Shown piece after piece: positions 17,478 to 56,541 of a DNA stretch of 56,541 nucleotides; positions within the stretch are counted from its first letter, which is position 1; the number at the start of each line of letters is the position of its first letter. Source of the stretch: Candidatus Nomurabacteria bacterium (GTDB lineage: Bacteria > Patescibacteriota > Minisyncoccia > Phycocordibacterales > UBA9973); NCBI GenBank assembly GCA_020845875.1, contig JADLEY010000011.1, positions 1-56,541 of the forward strand. The letters run 5' to 3'. The notes below the pieces were generated by a model that saw only the letters and a list, made by a program, of their open reading frames with translations, had not been told where the DNA came from and made no database searches. Made by a program: the position numbers and the translations under genes.

Positions 17478-17891
17478 ATGGCAGCGCAAAAGAAAAAGAA
17501 GCAGAAAAAACAGCACCGCGCCGTGCAAAGCGTCGAGCGCGGCGCTGACCGTGCCACGCAGTGGATCGGCTCGACCCACTCACTCATTGTCCACACAATG
17601 GTATTCATCGCAGCCTTCCTTTTGCCGCTGTTTGGAGCAACCTTTGACCGCGTACTCCTTGTACTCACCACCTTTCTCTCACTCGAGGCCATCTACCTTG
17701 CTATCTTCATCCAGATGACCGTCAACAAAAACACCGCCGACATTGAAGAGATTCAGGAAGACGTCGAAGACATCGCCGAAGATGTAGAGGAGATCCAAAA
17801 AGATGTCGATGAGATTCAGGAAGACGTGGACGAAATCCAAGAAGACATCGAAGAAATCCAAGAAGACGTGGACGAACAGACTGGAAAATAA
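17478..17891 (+). CDS. DUF1003-like two-TM membrane protein with acidic heptad-repeat tail
   Basis: Lys-rich N-terminus, two TM helices (LSLEAIYLAIFIQM) and a C-terminal (E/D)EIQEDV x6 tail. Confidence 0.55.
   Translation: MAAQKKKKQKKQHRAVQSVERGADRATQWIGSTHSLIVHTMVFIAAFLLPLFGATFDRVLLVLTTFLSLEAIYLAIFIQMTVNKNTADIEEIQEDVEDIAEDVEEIQKDVDEIQEDVDEIQEDIEEIQEDVDEQTGK
17745..17870 (+). repeat. Six tandem 21-bp repeats encoding the heptad EEIQEDV
   Basis: gaagagattcaggaagacgtc and five degenerate copies in phase. Confidence 0.85.
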
Positions 17892-24143: not shown

Positions 24144-24758
24144 TCATTTTGTCAAGTATCTTTTGAGAAAGCTTTTGCGATGCAGAAGGCTTAGTCCATG
24201 CCGCTCCAGTGCCTTATAGTGTGCTGCGGTGCCATACCCCTTATTTTCTCCCCAACGATAGTACGGGTAGAGTTTTGCAAAGCGCGTCATCAGTGCGTCT
24301 CGCCGCACCTTTGCAATCACCGATGCCATCGAAATGATTTGTTCTTTGCTGTCGCCTTTGATGATAGTTTGTTGCCTCGTATATTCCTTGGGGGCAAAGA
24401 GACTGCCGTCGAGACGTACTTCGCACTGCTGAGGTGTGAGTCCGAGCTGTCGGAGCACCGAGACAACACATTCGTGAATACACGGCACGATACCCTTTCT
24501 ATCTATCACTGCGGCACTGCGCGAAGCAACAGCAATGCGGATCTGCCCCTGTTTTTTCATCTGTCGAGTCCTCTTTTCCCACCGCTCTCGTGCGCTCGCC
24601 GTCATCTGCTTAGAGTCGGTAAGAAGCGCGCCGCCTTCCCGCCACTTCGCGGCTCGGTAGGCGGCGCGCGGCATCGCCACCGCACAGACATATACCGGCC
24701 CCGCTATCGGCCCCCTGCCTACTTCGTCTATGCCGATAATCCATTTTACCGATTTCAT
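24144..24758 (-). CDS. rnhB: Ribonuclease HII
   Basis: GIDEVGRGPIAGPV, DSKQ and GYGT motifs. Confidence 0.9.
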   Translation of the reverse strand: MKSVKWIIGIDEVGRGPIAGPVYVCAVAMPRAAYRAAKWREGGALLTDSKQMTASARERWEKRTRQMKKQGQIRIAVASRSAAVIDRKGIVPCIHECVVSVLRQLGLTPQQCEVRLDGSLFAPKEYTRQQTIIKGDSKEQIISMASVIAKVRRDALMTRFAKLYPYYRWGENKGYGTAAHYKALERHGLSLLHRKSFLKRYLTK

Positions 24759-24766
24759 ATATCCGT

Positions 24767-24775
24767 ACTATACCA
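24767..24775 (-). promoter_or_regulatory. Extended -10 box of rnhB overlapping the RT stop codon
   Basis: Minus strand TGGTATAGT, 8 nt upstream of ATG 24758. The RT stop TAG is at 24770->24768. Confidence 0.45.
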
Positions 24776-25778
24776 AATCACTTTGCTGTGAGCGCTCCAG
24801 TATATGTTTGGTCAAATTCCACCCATTTCCGTGCGATAGCAGACCCTTGTACGAATTCACCACGGCCTCGTCAGCAGCGTAAATGCCCGGATTGGCAAAC
24901 ATTCGCCGTTTCGTGGCAGTACGCAACACCCGATGGTGCGGGAAATGCACCCAACCAAGGAAATCAACGCCCGAGGCAAGAGTTTCTATTGAGATTTTAT
25001 TCGGGTGCATGGTAAGCCTCAGCCGATCCCACAGGAATTCCTGCATCAATGGCAATATCCGTTCAAGATAGGCACGGTCCCTAGACAGGACGGCGAAATC
25101 GTCAGCATAGCGAATATAGTGAACCGCTTTCATTTTATGCTTCATGAACTGGTCAAACTCGTTCATATAAATATTCACCAACAACTGCGAGGTGAAGTTG
25201 CCGAGCGGCAAACCAACACCAGGTGCCGATGAATGGAAACTCCCGACAATGATCGAAATCAACCAGACGATATCCCTATCCGGTATGTACCCTGCCAAGA
25301 TTTCAAGGAGTATGGTTTGATCGATATTCGCAAAGAACTTTTTGATGTCGCACTTCAGAACCCAGACGGTCTTCGTGTCATTCATTGAAACACTATTAGT
25401 GAAATGTTTAAAGCGTTGCAATGCGCGATGCGTCCCTTTTCCTTTCTGACATGATGTTGAATCAGAAATAAAAGTCCTCTCAAAAAACGGCATCAAGTTC
25501 CGATGAATTGCATGGTGCAGTAATCGATCCCGCACGCTCGCTTTATGAATGTCGCGCGGTTTCGGATCGGAAATCTTGAATGCCTGATATGCGGAATGTC
25601 GGTATGTCTTTGCAACAAGATCGCGATGCAAGGAAATAATATTTGTCATGAGGTCCCGCTCAAATTCTTGCACATCCTTGCGTGATTTTTTGCCACGCGA
25701 AAATTCCTTCCAAGCATCGAGAATATTTTCGAGTGAAATGATAGTATGGTAGGTATGTTGAAATCTAATTTTGGACAT
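24768..25778 (-). CDS. DGR-type reverse transcriptase
   Basis: GLPLGNFTSQLLVNIYMNEFD is the [I/L]GxxxSQ motif typical of DGR RTs. YIRYADDFAV is the YxDD box. About 336 aa with no maturase or endonuclease extension. Start placed at ATG 25778 (MSKIRFQHTYHTIISLENILDAW); the track ORF extends to a TTG at 25868. Confidence 0.85.
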   Translation of the reverse strand: MSKIRFQHTYHTIISLENILDAWKEFSRGKKSRKDVQEFERDLMTNIISLHRDLVAKTYRHSAYQAFKISDPKPRDIHKASVRDRLLHHAIHRNLMPFFERTFISDSTSCQKGKGTHRALQRFKHFTNSVSMNDTKTVWVLKCDIKKFFANIDQTILLEILAGYIPDRDIVWLISIIVGSFHSSAPGVGLPLGNFTSQLLVNIYMNEFDQFMKHKMKAVHYIRYADDFAVLSRDRAYLERILPLMQEFLWDRLRLTMHPNKISIETLASGVDFLGWVHFPHHRVLRTATKRRMFANPGIYAADEAVVNSYKGLLSHGNGWNLTKHILERSQQSDLV

Positions 25779-25787
25779 AGTGAGGGT

Positions 25788-25813
25788 CAGCCAGCCAGCC
25801 AGCCAGCCAGCCA
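25788..25813. repeat. Tetranucleotide microsatellite (CAGC)6CA between RT and avd
   Basis: cagccagccagccagccagccagcca read directly. It lies 10 nt upstream of the RT ATG 25778, or inside the RT ORF if the upstream TTG is used. Confidence 0.95.
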
Positions 25814-25857
25814 CAAGGACTTTACCCGTTCTAGCTAAGGTCAAGGAGGGGTATCTT

Positions 25858-26172
25858 TTGTGGTACAAGTTCTACCAAGATTTGCCAAAGTCACACAGGC
25901 ATTCACTCGGTCAACGCATCGACACGTTGTTTGTTGAAATAATAGAAGCGATATCCGCCGCAAGTTTTCTTTCCCGCGAGGAAAAGCATCCATATGTGCG
26001 CCTTGCGATCAGGAAAGCTGATACGCTGCGCTTGCTTCTATTGGTCTTATGGGAAACAAAATCCCTCGATGACAAGAAGTACCTGGCGCTTTCAGTGAAA
26101 CTGGACGAAGCCGGCAAGATGCTCGGCGGTTGGAGCGGACAGCTTACAAAACAAAACTCTCCCAAGAAATAA
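25858..26172 (+). CDS. avd: Avd-like four-helix-bundle protein (DGR accessory variability determinant family)
   Basis: Resembles the four-helix-bundle / 23S rRNA IVS-protein family (LGQRIDTLFVEIIEAI..., LDDKKYLALSVKLDEAGKMLGGW). Start proposed at TTG 25858, 8 nt after AAGGAGG (25843-25849). The track ORF begins at 25771. Confidence 0.7.
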   Translation: MWYKFYQDLPKSHRHSLGQRIDTLFVEIIEAISAASFLSREEKHPYVRLAIRKADTLRLLLLVLWETKSLDDKKYLALSVKLDEAGKMLGGWSGQLTKQNSPKK

Positions 26173-26184
26173 TTATTGGGAGAG
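26157..26184 (-). terminator. Minus-strand intrinsic terminator 13 nt downstream of TR, inside the avd 3' end
   Basis: On the minus strand: CTCTCCCAA-taattatttc-TTGGGAGAG followed by TTTTGTTTTG. There is no U-tract on the plus strand. Confidence 0.6.
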
Positions 26185-26197
26185 AAAATGAAGAGAG

Positions 26198-26323
26198 TTG
26201 CGAAACGGCAAACGCGAACCCGTTCCCACGATTCCACCTGTTGTCAGGCTTGTCATAGTACGTGTTGAGCCAACGTCCATCGTCATCACGGTTCGCGTTG
26301 AGCAAGTTCGGATCACCATCGGA
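26198..26323 (-). repeat. DGR template repeat (TR), sense on minus strand
   Basis: 126 nt, 108/126 identical to 26688-26813. Holds 30 sense-strand adenines, 6 AAC and 1 AAT codon in the VR frame. Confidence 0.9.
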
Positions 26324-26600
26324 CTGCGCGAGAGATCATCCGTGTCACCACCCTTTGAATGCTCTCAGGGCTGTATTGTATTCGGCATCTCATTCAGCAG
26401 AATGACCTACTGGGGTAATGCCCTAATATCTCGCGCCAAGTATCTTCTTTTTTGAGAAATACATGCACCACCCTACCCGAAGCCATGACCGCGGATACAC
26501 TCGATGCAAGGATACTGGTTTCGGTAGCGGAAAGCCTTGACCGTCCGCATATGCACCTACTGCCGAGGACCATTATACATTTTTTATTATGAGAAAAAAT

Positions 26601-26634
26601 TAGCCCTTGTTCCAAAATTTCGGAACAAGGGCTA
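26601..26634 (-). terminator. Intrinsic terminator / hairpin downstream of the DGR target gene
   Basis: TAGCCCTTGTTCC-8 nt-GGAACAAGGGCTA (13 bp), followed on the minus strand by ATTTTTTCTC. Confidence 0.75.
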
Positions 26635-26669
26635 AGGACTAAATTCAAAGAGCTGAAGTAATCAGCGTC

Positions 26670-27302
26670 TTAGTTTTGAGAACTAACTTGCGAAACGGCA
26701 AACGCGAACCCGAGCCCACGACCCCACCCGTCGCCAGGCTTGCCATAGCACGCGCTGAGCCAACGCCCATCGCCACCACGGTCCGCGCTGAGCAAGCTCG
26801 GACCACCATCGGAATCCTTAATTGGTTCGTGCATTGTGACGATCCAGATAAGGCCCATCGCTTTGAGACACTCGTCCGTGAATTTCTCACGAATAAGGCA
26901 AGCTATCTCAGCATTCGGTGTTTCGAAGTTTCGGTCTTCTGCGTTTTTGCGGATGTTTTTGGTGATCCGCTGGTTGTCTTCGAACAGCATGCCCTTCAGA
27001 ACGGCTACCTCGGTTGTTACGCCGGTTGTAGGTTTGAAGTCTTTTGAAAGAAGCACCTGTTTGGCATGACTGCCAACGCGGAAATCTTTCTTTTCAAGGC
27101 GGACTATCCATTCGGCACCAGTGGCACCATCGGATGTTACGGTGAAGTAAATTACTCCGTCATGTTCACGCCAGCTTTTTTCCAGTTCGGAAACCGAAGT
27201 TTCGCCGCGTAAGAATTTAAGAGCTCCGTCTTTGCCACCGAGTTTCTTCACGATGGCGTTCAGTTGGCCGGCAGTTAAGTCGGCAGATGCGAATTTTTCC
27301 AT
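26670..27302 (-). CDS. DGR target (variable) protein with C-terminal VR
   Basis: 210 aa from ATG 27302; the track ORF starts at TTG 27347. VR codes SDGGPSLLSADRGGDGRWLSACYGKPGDGWGRGLGFAFAVSQ, ending 5 codons before the stop. No signal peptide or TM helix is visible. Confidence 0.8.
   Translation of the reverse strand: MEKFASADLTAGQLNAIVKKLGGKDGALKFLRGETSVSELEKSWREHDGVIYFTVTSDGATGAEWIVRLEKKDFRVGSHAKQVLLSKDFKPTTGVTTEVAVLKGMLFEDNQRITKNIRKNAEDRNFETPNAEIACLIREKFTDECLKAMGLIWIVTMHEPIKDSDGGPSLLSADRGGDGRWLSACYGKPGDGWGRGLGFAFAVSQVSSQN
26688..26813 (-). repeat. DGR variable repeat (VR)
   Basis: Differs from TR at 18 positions, all corresponding to TR adenines. The invariant 25-nt 3' block is 26688-26712. 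Confidence 0.9.
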
Positions 27303-27449
27303 GTTGTTATGGTTTTTATTTTTCCTTACTCCAGGATCGAACTGCAACCACTGTGGTCACAGCCATGAAATTCCGACCAGATATTCAATCGTCAGGACCT
27401 CGTGGCTATGACCACTCGCAAGTTAGATTACAATGAACATATTAGTGAC

Positions 27450-27458
27450 ATTGTAGCA
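27450..27458 (-). promoter_or_regulatory. Extended -10 box driving the DGR target gene (long leader)
   Basis: Minus strand TGCTACAAT (27458->27450), about 147 nt upstream of ATG 27302. Confidence 0.45.
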
Positions 27459-27502
27459 CTATTAAACTTAAAAGTCAATAGGCAGAAAAAGCTTGTGGAT
27501 AT

Positions 27503-55235: not shown

Positions 55236-56541
55236 AAGACTTTTCAGTATACCGCTTCATTTTAAATAATCGCTTCGCACCCTCGATGAGAGCGATGTTG
55301 AACACCCCAATCAGAAGCACTCCCCCTACCCATGGAAGCGGGAGCGCAACGGTACCGAGGAGGACCTGCAGCGCAGGCAAGTAAATCGCCGCCACCATCA
55401 ACATCACACCAAGGAGCGTGCCGCCGGTGAGGTAGCGATTGGAGAAGAGTGAAAATGAGAAAATGCTGCGCTCGAGACTTCGCACCGAAAAGGCAACAAA
55501 GAGCGTGTAGGTGCCAAACGCGGCAAACATAAACGTGCGCACCAATTGCGCATCATGTCCGCGCGAAGTAAGAAACAGGTAGAGCGCAAAGAGAAAGACG
55601 CTGGTCGAAAATCCGATCACCACAATCAAAAATCGCATCGGCCGATCAAAGAGCGAGGTGCGATGCGGGCGGTGCATCAGCGCATTCGGCTCCTTCTCAA
55701 AAGCAAACGCAATTGCCGGGAAGCTGTCGGCAAAGAAATTTACCCATAGTATCTGGAGTGCGGAGAGCGGCAGCGGCACTCCCACAATGAGCGCTCCGCC
55801 GATAAGGATGAGCTCGTCCGTAATGCTTGAGAGCAGGTATACTAACACCCTCCTGATATTCCCCACTATTTGCCTTCCCTCTTCGACGGCGGCAACGATT
55901 GTCTCAAAATTGTCATCGAGAAGCACCAGGTCCGCCACGCTCTGCGCCACCTCAGTACCCGAGCCCATCGCAATACCGACATCCGCCTGCTTAATCGACG
56001 GAGCGTCGTTCACCCCGTCTCCTGTCATCGCCACCACTTCGCCCATCTTTTGGTACAGCGTGGCAATACGCAGCTTATCAAACGGCGTCACTCGGGCAAT
56101 CACGGAGAGACGCGGGAGCCGCTCCATAAGCTGCCGATCAGAGAGCCCTTCGAGCTCTGAGGCATCGAGCACCGAGCGGTCGTCGACTGCCATGCCAATT
56201 TCCCTCGCTACCGCCACCGCGGTGCCGCGATGGTCGCCAGTCAGTATGACCGTCTTGATACCGGCGTCATGCACCCGCTTCATCACGGAGGCGATGCTCG
56301 GGCGCACGGGGTCGCGAAAAGTAATCAGCCCATCAAAGGATAAGCTCCCCGTCGGCACATCTTTCGAAAGAGAAAAATCTTCTCCCCCACTGACTGCCTT
56401 GCTCGCTACCCCAAGCACTCGCTCCCCGGAAGAGGCAAACTCCTCTATCTGCCGGAGGATTGTCTTTTGTGCCACCCCATCAAGCGCCGAGCGGGCAAGT
56501 AAAATATCCGGCGCGCCAAAAAATACCACTTCATGAATATC
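55228..56541 (-). CDS. P-type cation-transporting ATPase (P2/Ca2+-type), C-terminal part; the gene continues past the window end
   Basis: MTGDGVNDAPSIKQADVGIAMG hinge motif and C-terminal TM bundle. The frame is open to the window edge. 8-nt overlap with the antiporter gene. Confidence 0.85.
   Translation of the reverse strand, partial: DIHEVVFFGAPDILLARSALDGVAQKTILRQIEEFASSGERVLGVASKAVSGGEDFSLSKDVPTGSLSFDGLITFRDPVRPSIASVMKRVHDAGIKTVILTGDHRGTAVAVAREIGMAVDDRSVLDASELEGLSDRQLMERLPRLSVIARVTPFDKLRIATLYQKMGEVVAMTGDGVNDAPSIKQADVGIAMGSGTEVAQSVADLVLLDDNFETIVAAVEEGRQIVGNIRRVLVYLLSSITDELILIGGALIVGVPLPLSALQILWVNFFADSFPAIAFAFEKEPNALMHRPHRTSLFDRPMRFLIVVIGFSTSVFLFALYLFLTSRGHDAQLVRTFMFAAFGTYTLFVAFSVRSLERSIFSFSLFSNRYLTGGTLLGVMLMVAAIYLPALQVLLGTVALPLPWVGGVLLIGVFNIALIEGAKRLFKMKRYTEKSYA

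Follow-up and report, generated by a model that had tools for sequence, protein, structure and literature searches.

The contig JADLEY010000011.1 of Candidatus Nomurabacteria bacterium (assembly GCA_020845875.1) carries a reverse transcriptase (RT) gene, a small accessory gene and two near-identical repeats within less than 3 kb, which raises the question of whether this locus is a working diversity-generating retroelement (DGR), that is, an element that transfers a template repeat (TR) with adenine-specific changes into a variable repeat (VR) of a target gene, and, if so, how its RNA is organized and its activity controlled. The window analysed is the whole stretch of DNA from position 1 to position 56,541 of this contig, and all coordinates refer to it. 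The segment 24768–27478 is very probably a complete and recently active DGR with the layout of the Patescibacteria type, and the RNA and control elements described below are proposed as parts of it with less certainty.

The first part of the answer comes from the repeats themselves (Table 1). The sole long direct repeat between 24000 and 28500 consists of two copies of 126 nucleotides (nt) that are 86% identical, one of which, the TR, is non-coding, and the other, the VR, lies in frame with an open reading frame (ORF) of 210 codons that runs from 27302 to 26670. In the minus (sense) orientation, 18 mismatches separate the copies, and each of them falls on an adenine of the TR (16 A>G, one A>C and one A>T); 18 of the 30 TR adenines are altered in the VR, as against none of the 96 other bases (hypergeometric P = 3.1e-14). 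All six AAC codons of the TR and its sole AAT codon are recoded in the VR. The homology stops sharply at both ends, and at the 3′-end the copies share an adenine-poor block of 25 nt without any difference, after which the flanks diverge at once (GTTAG versus CTCTC); from the sequence, this shared block followed by divergent flanks is a candidate for a boundary of the initiation of mutagenic homing (IMH/IMH*) type. No further VR-like copy was found in the 56.5-kb window when the adenine positions were masked. A preliminary description of the same DNA, made from its letters, had claimed that the differences are restricted to TR adenines and that the VR sits near the end of a minus-strand ORF; both claims stood, as did the repeat coordinates, the codon recoding, the invariant 25 nt and the sharp ends of the homology that it had reported.

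The same pattern was found in a set of 80 related loci from genomes of Patescibacteria (individual loci and strain contigs are denoted by L numbers below). About 38 of these contain a clear TR located 465–490 nt downstream of the VR start, together with a reversed avd and an RT gene at near-fixed spacing, and in these 38 loci 582 of the 608 TR/VR mismatches (96%) are at TR adenines, with 51% of the adenines changed; the corresponding proportion in the DGR of Bordetella is about 50% (PMC6182149). Family-wide, the adenine substitutions comprise 66% A>G, 23% A>T and 11% A>C, which places the 16 of 18 A>G changes of the window at the high end of this bias. Such a preference could also be produced if the repeats were a duplicated gene fragment that had diverged by purine-transition bias or base editing, independently of the RT. 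This origin is given almost no credence, since the changes are specific to one strand and to adenines, T>C and G>A being absent; besides A>G there are A>C and A>T changes, which are dominant in some of the strain differences described below; turnover affects the VR but not the TR, which is non-coding; and a DGR-type RT and Avd are co-located with the repeats at fixed spacing in about 40 loci.

The machinery encoded beside the repeats is of the expected kind. The product of the RT gene matched the Pfam family RVT_1 (E = 2.6e-23), and its best match in the PDB was the RT of the Bordetella phage (bRT; 8ub7_A, E = 5.8e-39), whereas RTs of group II introns and retrons scored about 1e-17. In the motif alignment of the two proteins, LGNFTSQ is aligned with IGSLTSQ and YADD with YMDD. 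By its best match to bRT and its SQ motif, the enzyme is a DGR-type RT, which supports the assignment in the preliminary description; NCBIfam apparently holds no model of a DGR RT. The product of the accessory gene scored above the cut-off of the Pfam family bAvd (43.9 bits; cut-off, 40), bearing out its earlier designation as Avd-like, with the clarification that the gene lies on the plus strand, opposite to the target, the TR and the RT. The order in the window, target/VR, TR, reversed avd and RT, recurs with the same spacing in about 40 Patescibacteria loci, in which avd is reversed at the same position. Judged by gene order, this layout is the published B3 architecture, “TR-(avd)-RT”, typical of the candidate phyla radiation (CPR) bacteria (Wu et al., 2018; PMC5758913). 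Another survey (Roux et al., 2021; PMC8144416) describes a clade, DGR clade 2, that occurs in Patescibacteria only and in whose targets neither transmembrane nor other conserved domains can typically be recognised; the host range and the domain-free target found here agree with that description. The window DGR adds a member to the well-surveyed B3 kind of Patescibacteria.

Evidence for recent activity was provided by a comparison of strains, which was made on consensus contigs assembled from other samples and not on reads. These contigs encode the same or nearly the same proteins as the window, L085 representing a more distant strain. Four contigs, assembled independently and belonging to the same strain or a close one, have VRs that differ from that of the window at 14–19 sites each, and 63 of the 64 differences are at TR-adenine positions. 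The VR of L083 differs at 19 sites, all of them TR adenines, while there is no difference over about 1.8 kb of TR, leader (the region directly upstream of the TR), avd and RT, and one change in the 489 nt of the target gene outside the VR. L082 shows 16 VR differences, 15 at TR-adenine sites, with the TR, leader and RT unchanged; L001 shows 14, all at TR-adenine sites, its TR lying outside the contig, which ends inside the leader; and L085 shows 15, all at TR-adenine sites, with three changes in the TR. The TR is also identical to that of the window in L086, which does not extend to the VR. In these assemblies, the VR changes at a rate well above that of background divergence, and its changes are restricted to template adenines. 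Because the TR, leader and RT are identical but the VRs differ among strains, the element has been active recently. The preliminary description had proposed a test, on reads, of whether VR variation is confined to TR-adenine positions while the TR stays invariant; the assemblies speak for this, the TR being unchanged in the two same-strain contigs that span it.

Decay is nevertheless widespread among the relatives, and it is a ground for an alternative in which the cassette is a fossil of past diversification, with TR/VR and strain differences that are old and carried by diverged lineages. Decayed or rearranged cassettes were found in L002, L013, L018, L026, L030, L042, L046, L055, L065 and L073; some keep the TR and avd with the RT missing or truncated, and some keep the TR only. 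The RT is missing or truncated in L002, L013, L018, L030, L042 and L065, whereas in L073 no TR was found and the target is followed immediately by avd and RT, and L028 contains two leader copies without avd or RT. About half of the target homologs (L003, L005, L012, L014 and about 30 more) have no cassette (TR, avd and RT) within 6 kb, although remnants of the TR leader were detected in some of them with the leader model described below. The use of consensus assemblies also leaves room for old differences. A fossil is nevertheless improbable for the window, in which all parts of the cassette are intact, and the contrast in L083 between 19 VR differences and an otherwise all but unchanged cassette and target also tells against it. 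Target copies without a cassette may be, or may have been, remote targets of a linked TR: in one genome, the VR of an unlinked copy and the TR of the linked cassette (L031 and L067) differ at 22 positions, 17 of which are adenines.

The protein that is diversified has neither a signal peptide nor a transmembrane stretch detectable by eye and is apparently a cytoplasmic cellular protein. It gave no match in Pfam or NCBIfam and none in the PDB by profile search, and Pfam scans of all members of its family returned nothing. According to sequence clustering, the target is a member of a large family restricted to Patescibacteria, with 1,159 homologs in clusters of 90% identity and, at 50% identity, 2,299 clusters; every member has a length of about 200–260 amino acids (aa), and all named ones come from Patescibacteria. 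Outside the VR, the family is 60–90% identical, and the hypervariable columns of its alignment are only those VR positions that match template adenines. A first structural model, built from 25 close homologs, was poor (predicted local distance difference test score, pLDDT, 62) and its fold search uninformative, but a second AlphaFold 2 (AF2) model, built from 136 more diverse sequences, reached a pLDDT of 89.6. This model shows an alpha/beta domain of about 165 aa, of which the VR makes up three strands at the C-terminus and the associated loops. The top fold matches are nearly all C-type lectin-like, at non-significant values (E, 0.045–0.1; template modelling score, TM, 0.14–0.28), and a lectin fold is suggested by the model. 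The C-type lectin fold anticipated in the preliminary description was not borne out, the model being confident and the fold search without a significant match.

Table 1. Features of the DGR locus in the window, with strand and basis of assignment.
Feature	Position	Strand	Basis
DGR reverse transcriptase (RT), 336 aa, LGNFTSQ and YADD motifs	24768..25778	-	RVT_1, 8ub7_A
Perfect tetranucleotide repeat, (GGCT)6.5 on the minus strand	25788..25813	.	Tandem Repeats Finder (TRF); candidate hypermutable switch
avd accessory gene, 104 aa, TTG start after AAGGAGG	25858..26172	+	Pfam bAvd, NCBIfam DivGenRetAVD
TR 3′ flank, 9-bp hairpin (26184-26176 with 26165-26157), then TTTTGTTTTG tract	26147..26197	-	compensatory changes in 6/7 pairs
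TR, non-coding copy	26198..26323	-	comparison with VR
Structured leader RNA directly upstream of TR, about 240 nt	26324..26562	-	covariation, covariance model
Leader segment GAAGATACTTG (RNA GAAGAUACUUG) directly 5′ of P3, 11 nt	26437..26447	-	proposed pairing with TR 3′-end
Extended -10 box TGTATAAT of TR-RNA unit	26572..26579	-	read from sequence; TATAAT-like box at same column in 37 loci
Intrinsic terminator of target gene, 16-bp hairpin then T run	26600..26635	-	in related loci, hairpin at same place with changed sequence
Target gene, 210-aa variable protein	26670..27302	-	ORF, family alignment, AF2 model
VR, target codons 164-205	26688..26813	-	comparison with TR
Long conserved hairpin in target 5′ untranslated region (UTR), 21 bp	27354..27414	-	RNAalifold, 36 loci
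5′ UTR segment CTAACTTGCGAG	27415..27426	-	inverted repeat with VR end
Promoter-like site of target: TTGACT, 17 nt, TACAAT with upstream TG	27450..27478	-	consensus scan, 10/12 matches

The second part of the question concerns the RNA from which the template would be copied. The VR and TR are separated by an interval of 364 nt, which contains the terminator of the target gene, an extended -10 box and a leader, and from these signals the TR RNA appears to be a separate transcription unit. The leader is conserved among related loci to the same degree as coding DNA and folds into helices P1 (26557–26523) and P2 (26510–26462) and a P3 domain (26436–26326), the last of which is closed by a helix of 12 bp (26436–26425 with 26337–26326) that is formed wholly within the leader, ends 2 nt before the TR and shows covariation in 9 of its 12 pairs. 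An analysis of 37 loci with RNAalifold and pair counts found 93% of the cells in the leader helices to be paired and 50 of the 72 pairs to have compensatory changes; none of 500 shuffles reached the observed value, and slid registers were 38–52% paired. A covariance model of the leader, R1, scored 213 bits in the window and found the leader at every TR-bearing locus, while no Rfam family matched the regions 26140–26590 and 27303–27450 at E<=5. No description of this leader RNA was found in the literature searched, which did not cover the key paper on CPR DGRs (Paul et al., 2017).

Directly 5′ of P3, the leader segment 26447–26437 is complementary to the last 3 nt of the TR and its 3′ flank, CAACTCTCTTC (RNA CAACUCUCUUC; 26200–26190), and contains an ACTTGG (RNA ACUUGG) that is invariant across loci. 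This helix is paired in 79% of cells, compared with 35–53% in slid registers, and has eight compensatory cells as against 2.0 expected (0 of 1,000 shuffles), including changes from G-C to A-U and from A-U to C-G in three loci each. Beyond it, the TR 3′ flank forms the conserved hairpin listed in Table 1, in a region that overlaps the avd stop codon; together with the TTTTGTTTTG tract, this hairpin is likely the terminator of the TR RNA, and the stem-loop is possibly a site for Avd binding.

Two observations on the leader stand apart from its pairing. The P3a loop of the window (26389–26414, minus strand) contains an insertion of about 25 nt, CCCAGTAGGTCATTCTGCTGAATGAG; the distant locus L015 has it too, but no other locus does, not even the close strain L085. 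With R1, partial additional copies of the leader, mainly P1, were detected upstream of the target promoter in L015 (1062–1260; 47 bits) and L005 (5699–5854; 38 bits). The possibility that the target 5′ UTR is itself a homolog of the TR leader was rejected: R1 scored only 1.3 bits on the UTR of the window, and the L015 and L005 matches are extra leader copies.

The leader could instead be an ordinary structured 5′ region that serves stability or processing, with the priming and stop elements located downstream of the TR in RNA that is antisense to avd. Many DGRs, including those of CPR bacteria, are reported in a survey of DGR RNAs to have stem-loops shortly after the TR and duplexes between upstream and downstream sequences, and the conserved 9-bp hairpin after the TR in the window and the limited covariation of the leader/3′-flank helix would both fit this arrangement. 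We consider it the less likely reading, because a conserved U tract comes after the hairpin and the transcript probably ends there; P3 adjoins the TR, lies wholly within the leader and covaries at most of its pairs; the 3′ boundary of the TR has a complement, with compensatory changes, in the strand 5′ of P3; and the leader matches no Rfam family and is conserved like coding sequence.

The preferred reading of the leader, as the part of the RNA that brings the two ends of the TR together, draws on the RNA logic of Bordetella, in which one strand of the spacer forms the TR:primer duplex and also the adjacent duplex termed cPRT Stop with sequence upstream of the TR (bioRxiv 10.1101/2023.10.23.563531; PMC6182149). 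By analogy, the TR transcript of the window would start at about 26565, directed by the TGTATAAT box, and would comprise a leader of about 240 nt and the TR of 126 nt before ending at about 26147, at the hairpin and U tract. The leader strand 26447–26425 would pair through its 5′-half with sequence just after the TR and through its 3′-half with sequence just before it (P3), and a single leader strand paired with both ends would present the TR as a closed loop. The bridging strand would thus be upstream of the TR, in contrast to the spacer strand of Bordetella, which does the equivalent from the downstream side. Priming by RT and Avd would take place in cis, close to the invariant ACUUGG, and copying of the TR, with misincorporation opposite adenines, would follow and stop at P3; covariation and analogy point to these sites of priming and of arrest of the complementary DNA (cDNA). 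The cDNA would replace the VR, the boundary being set by the shared adenine-poor block of 25 nt and the flanks that diverge right after it.

The third part of the question, control, is raised by the repeat between avd and the RT gene. The window has no perfect tetranucleotide array other than (GGCT)6.5, which lies inside a divergent avd–RT region of 79 nt and ends 10 nt before the RT ATG. At the same position, 25 of 28 related loci (L004–L080) carry poly-G (G7–G13), (GGTT)n, (GATT)n or (GGCT)n, with the RT start codon 9–17 nt after the tract. A total of 45 such repeats occur in 774 kb of loci, 25 of them within 2.3 kb of avd–RT intergenic DNA, which corresponds to an enrichment of about 400-fold over the rest of the loci; decayed loci have five more at the corresponding position. 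Near-identical loci have tracts of unequal length (G8/G9, G10/G11 and G7/G9), and strains of the window organism have 3, 6 or 9 GGCT units.

Contingency loci, in which phase variation is brought about by simple-sequence repeats, are familiar from Neisseria, Haemophilus, Campylobacter and Bordetella. As in these loci, a homopolymer or tetranucleotide tract is found here in a control region, and since its position is conserved while its sequence is variable and its length is polymorphic between close strains, it bears the signature of a contingency locus. We propose that the repeat makes expression of RT and/or avd switchable, so that a hypermutable element in the avd–RT control region would probably turn the machinery on and off; unlike in known contingency loci, the tract would then control a mutagenic retroelement and not a surface structure. 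No paper linking DGRs to such repeats was found in the literature searched.

Alternatively, the tract may be a slippage-prone spacer, a ribosome-binding or structural (e.g. G-rich) element, or a neutral by-product. Most of the tracts are G-rich and are located where a ribosome-binding site is expected, the frame through the tract is often closed, and there is no conserved upstream start codon. This explanation is a serious contender but a somewhat doubtful one, as the position is kept while the type of repeat changes (poly-G, GGTT, GATT and GGCT), the enrichment is far above that in the rest of the loci, length varies between near-identical loci and strains, and a (GATT)7 tract cannot be a G-rich element.

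A further candidate element lies in the target mRNA. Its 5′ UTR, of about 145 nt (about 27303–27445), follows a promoter-like site, with TTGACA/TATAAT-like boxes at the same place in related loci, and contains a long hairpin in which 16 of the 21 pairs show compensatory changes, followed by smaller hairpins; copies of the gene with and without a linked DGR share the structure. The UTR segment CTAACTTGCGAG is complementary over 12 nt, one of the pairs being G-U, to the VR 3′-end together with its VR-specific flank (TTCGCAAGTTAG, 26683–26694), about 720 nt away, and complementary runs of 9–16 nt are found at the same UTR position in many loci. This pairing is formed in 60% of cells in the correct register versus 30–49% in shifted ones, with one clearly covarying pair (A-T in 24, G-C in 20). 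No description of the target 5′ UTR structure was found in the literature searched.

Other loci have an AAGGAG ribosome-binding site and a last hairpin in the UTR, both of which are missing in the window and in L002. In addition, a patch of 49 nt (27421–27469), covering the spacer of the target promoter and the start of the 5′ UTR, differs from the window by about 14 substitutions and two indels in L001 and L083; lying between otherwise identical strains, it looks like a small recombination patch, and it weakens the UTR/VR-end helix in both contigs.

Taken jointly, these elements would describe DGRs of the B3 type with a rearranged RNA, in which the equivalent of the spacer has moved into the upstream leader of about 240 nt to form a new, uncatalogued RNA family, combined with a stochastic on/off repeat switch and a target mRNA leader that pairs with the VR boundary. 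This joint model is put forward tentatively, as one that falls a little short of an even balance.

Several points weigh against the model, or against the DGR assignment on which it builds. Variation within the population and current activity are inferred from assembled consensus contigs, and the priming site, the RNA ends and the permuted-spacer arrangement draw solely on covariation and analogy. The leader/3′-flank helix has two positions that are always mismatched and few covarying sites, and the single-sequence fold of the whole TR RNA is unremarkable (z = -1.27). A translational frameshift switch at the repeat is unsupported, as the tracts have no conserved start codon upstream and a stop occurs there in 7 of 27 loci. 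At the protein level, the top NCBIfam match of the RT is a group II intron model, far under its cut-off, and the Avd product matches NCBIfam DivGenRetAVD at E = 1.3e-15 yet remains under the cut-off of 80; a Foldseek search of the target model against the PDB and BFVD gave no match with E<=0.001 (best E = 0.045; TM<=0.28). Finally, the loss or truncation of RT, avd or TR in many related loci shows that decay is common.

Outside the cassette, a family search confirmed rnhB as the adjacent gene, and the DnaE-type polymerase was identified from the Pfam families listed for the near-identical flanking gene in two strain contigs. The rnhB/dnaE setting given in the preliminary description is thereby confirmed for both neighbours, but it has no special meaning, since related loci do not conserve it. 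Only 10 nt separate the RT stop codon from the start codon of the RNase HII gene (rnhB) on the same strand (24758–24770), and the two genes are likely co-transcribed in the window organism. A role of RNase HII as a DGR accessory was rejected, since the rnhB–RT adjacency is not kept in related loci. Elsewhere in the window, positions 17745–17876 contain an imperfect tandem array with a period of 21 nt (also 42 and 63) and about six copies of the consensus GAAGAAATCCAAGAAGACGTC, which probably encodes a repetitive acidic protein segment.

Compared with the prototype, the DGR of Bordetella phage BPP-1 (mtd-avd-TR-brt), the window element shares adenine-specific transfer from the TR to the 3′-end of the target, substitution of about half of the adenines, a homologous RT with the [I/L]GxxxSQ motif, an Avd, and, as predicted from covariation, RNA helices that bracket both ends of the TR. 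It differs in that avd is inverted and placed after the TR, that the bridging strand would lie in the upstream leader and not in a downstream spacer, that the TR RNA apparently has its own transcription unit, and that the target is a small, apparently cytoplasmic cellular protein where BPP-1 diversifies a phage tail fibre; moreover, the GC-rich hairpin after the VR is not evident in the window, which instead has a 5′ UTR segment complementary to the VR boundary. Known DGRs of CPR bacteria and Patescibacteria (PMC5758913, PMC8144416) have the same host group and gene order, an inverted avd and a target without a recognisable domain, and, like the “unknown VR” classes of those surveys, the window VR cannot be assigned to a class by sequence. 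No difference from the surveyed DGRs is apparent at the level at which they are described, and the leader RNA, the pre-RT repeat and the target UTR structure were not found described in the literature searched. With the DGR proteins of C-type lectin fold (Mtd, TvpA and the archaeal AvpA), the predicted target structure shares a C-terminal VR placed on the strands and loops of a compact alpha/beta domain, with invariant scaffold residues (W, G, R and a GFAF motif) between the variable positions; unlike them, the domain of about 165 aa has three extra helices, none of its fold matches is significant (E>=0.045), and no known DGR variable protein is among its top 50 matches.

DGRs have already been surveyed in thousands, and the window adds one in a CPR genome. 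The near-identical strain contigs make it a clean example in which the VR turns over at adenines while the rest of the cassette is frozen. The family to which the target belongs is very large, highly conserved and of unknown function, and must matter to the episymbiotic Patescibacteria. The leader RNA, the pre-RT repeat and the target 5′ UTR raise the interest of the locus beyond that of a routine DGR, with functions that are here reasoned and not demonstrated. If the proposed role of the covarying leader is correct, it would give a model for the priming and stopping of cDNA in DGRs with an inverted avd. If the position-conserved, hypermutable repeat acts as proposed, targeted hypermutation would itself be phase-variable, which would bear on the regulation of DGRs, and the cell would hedge its bets on whether to hypermutate at all.

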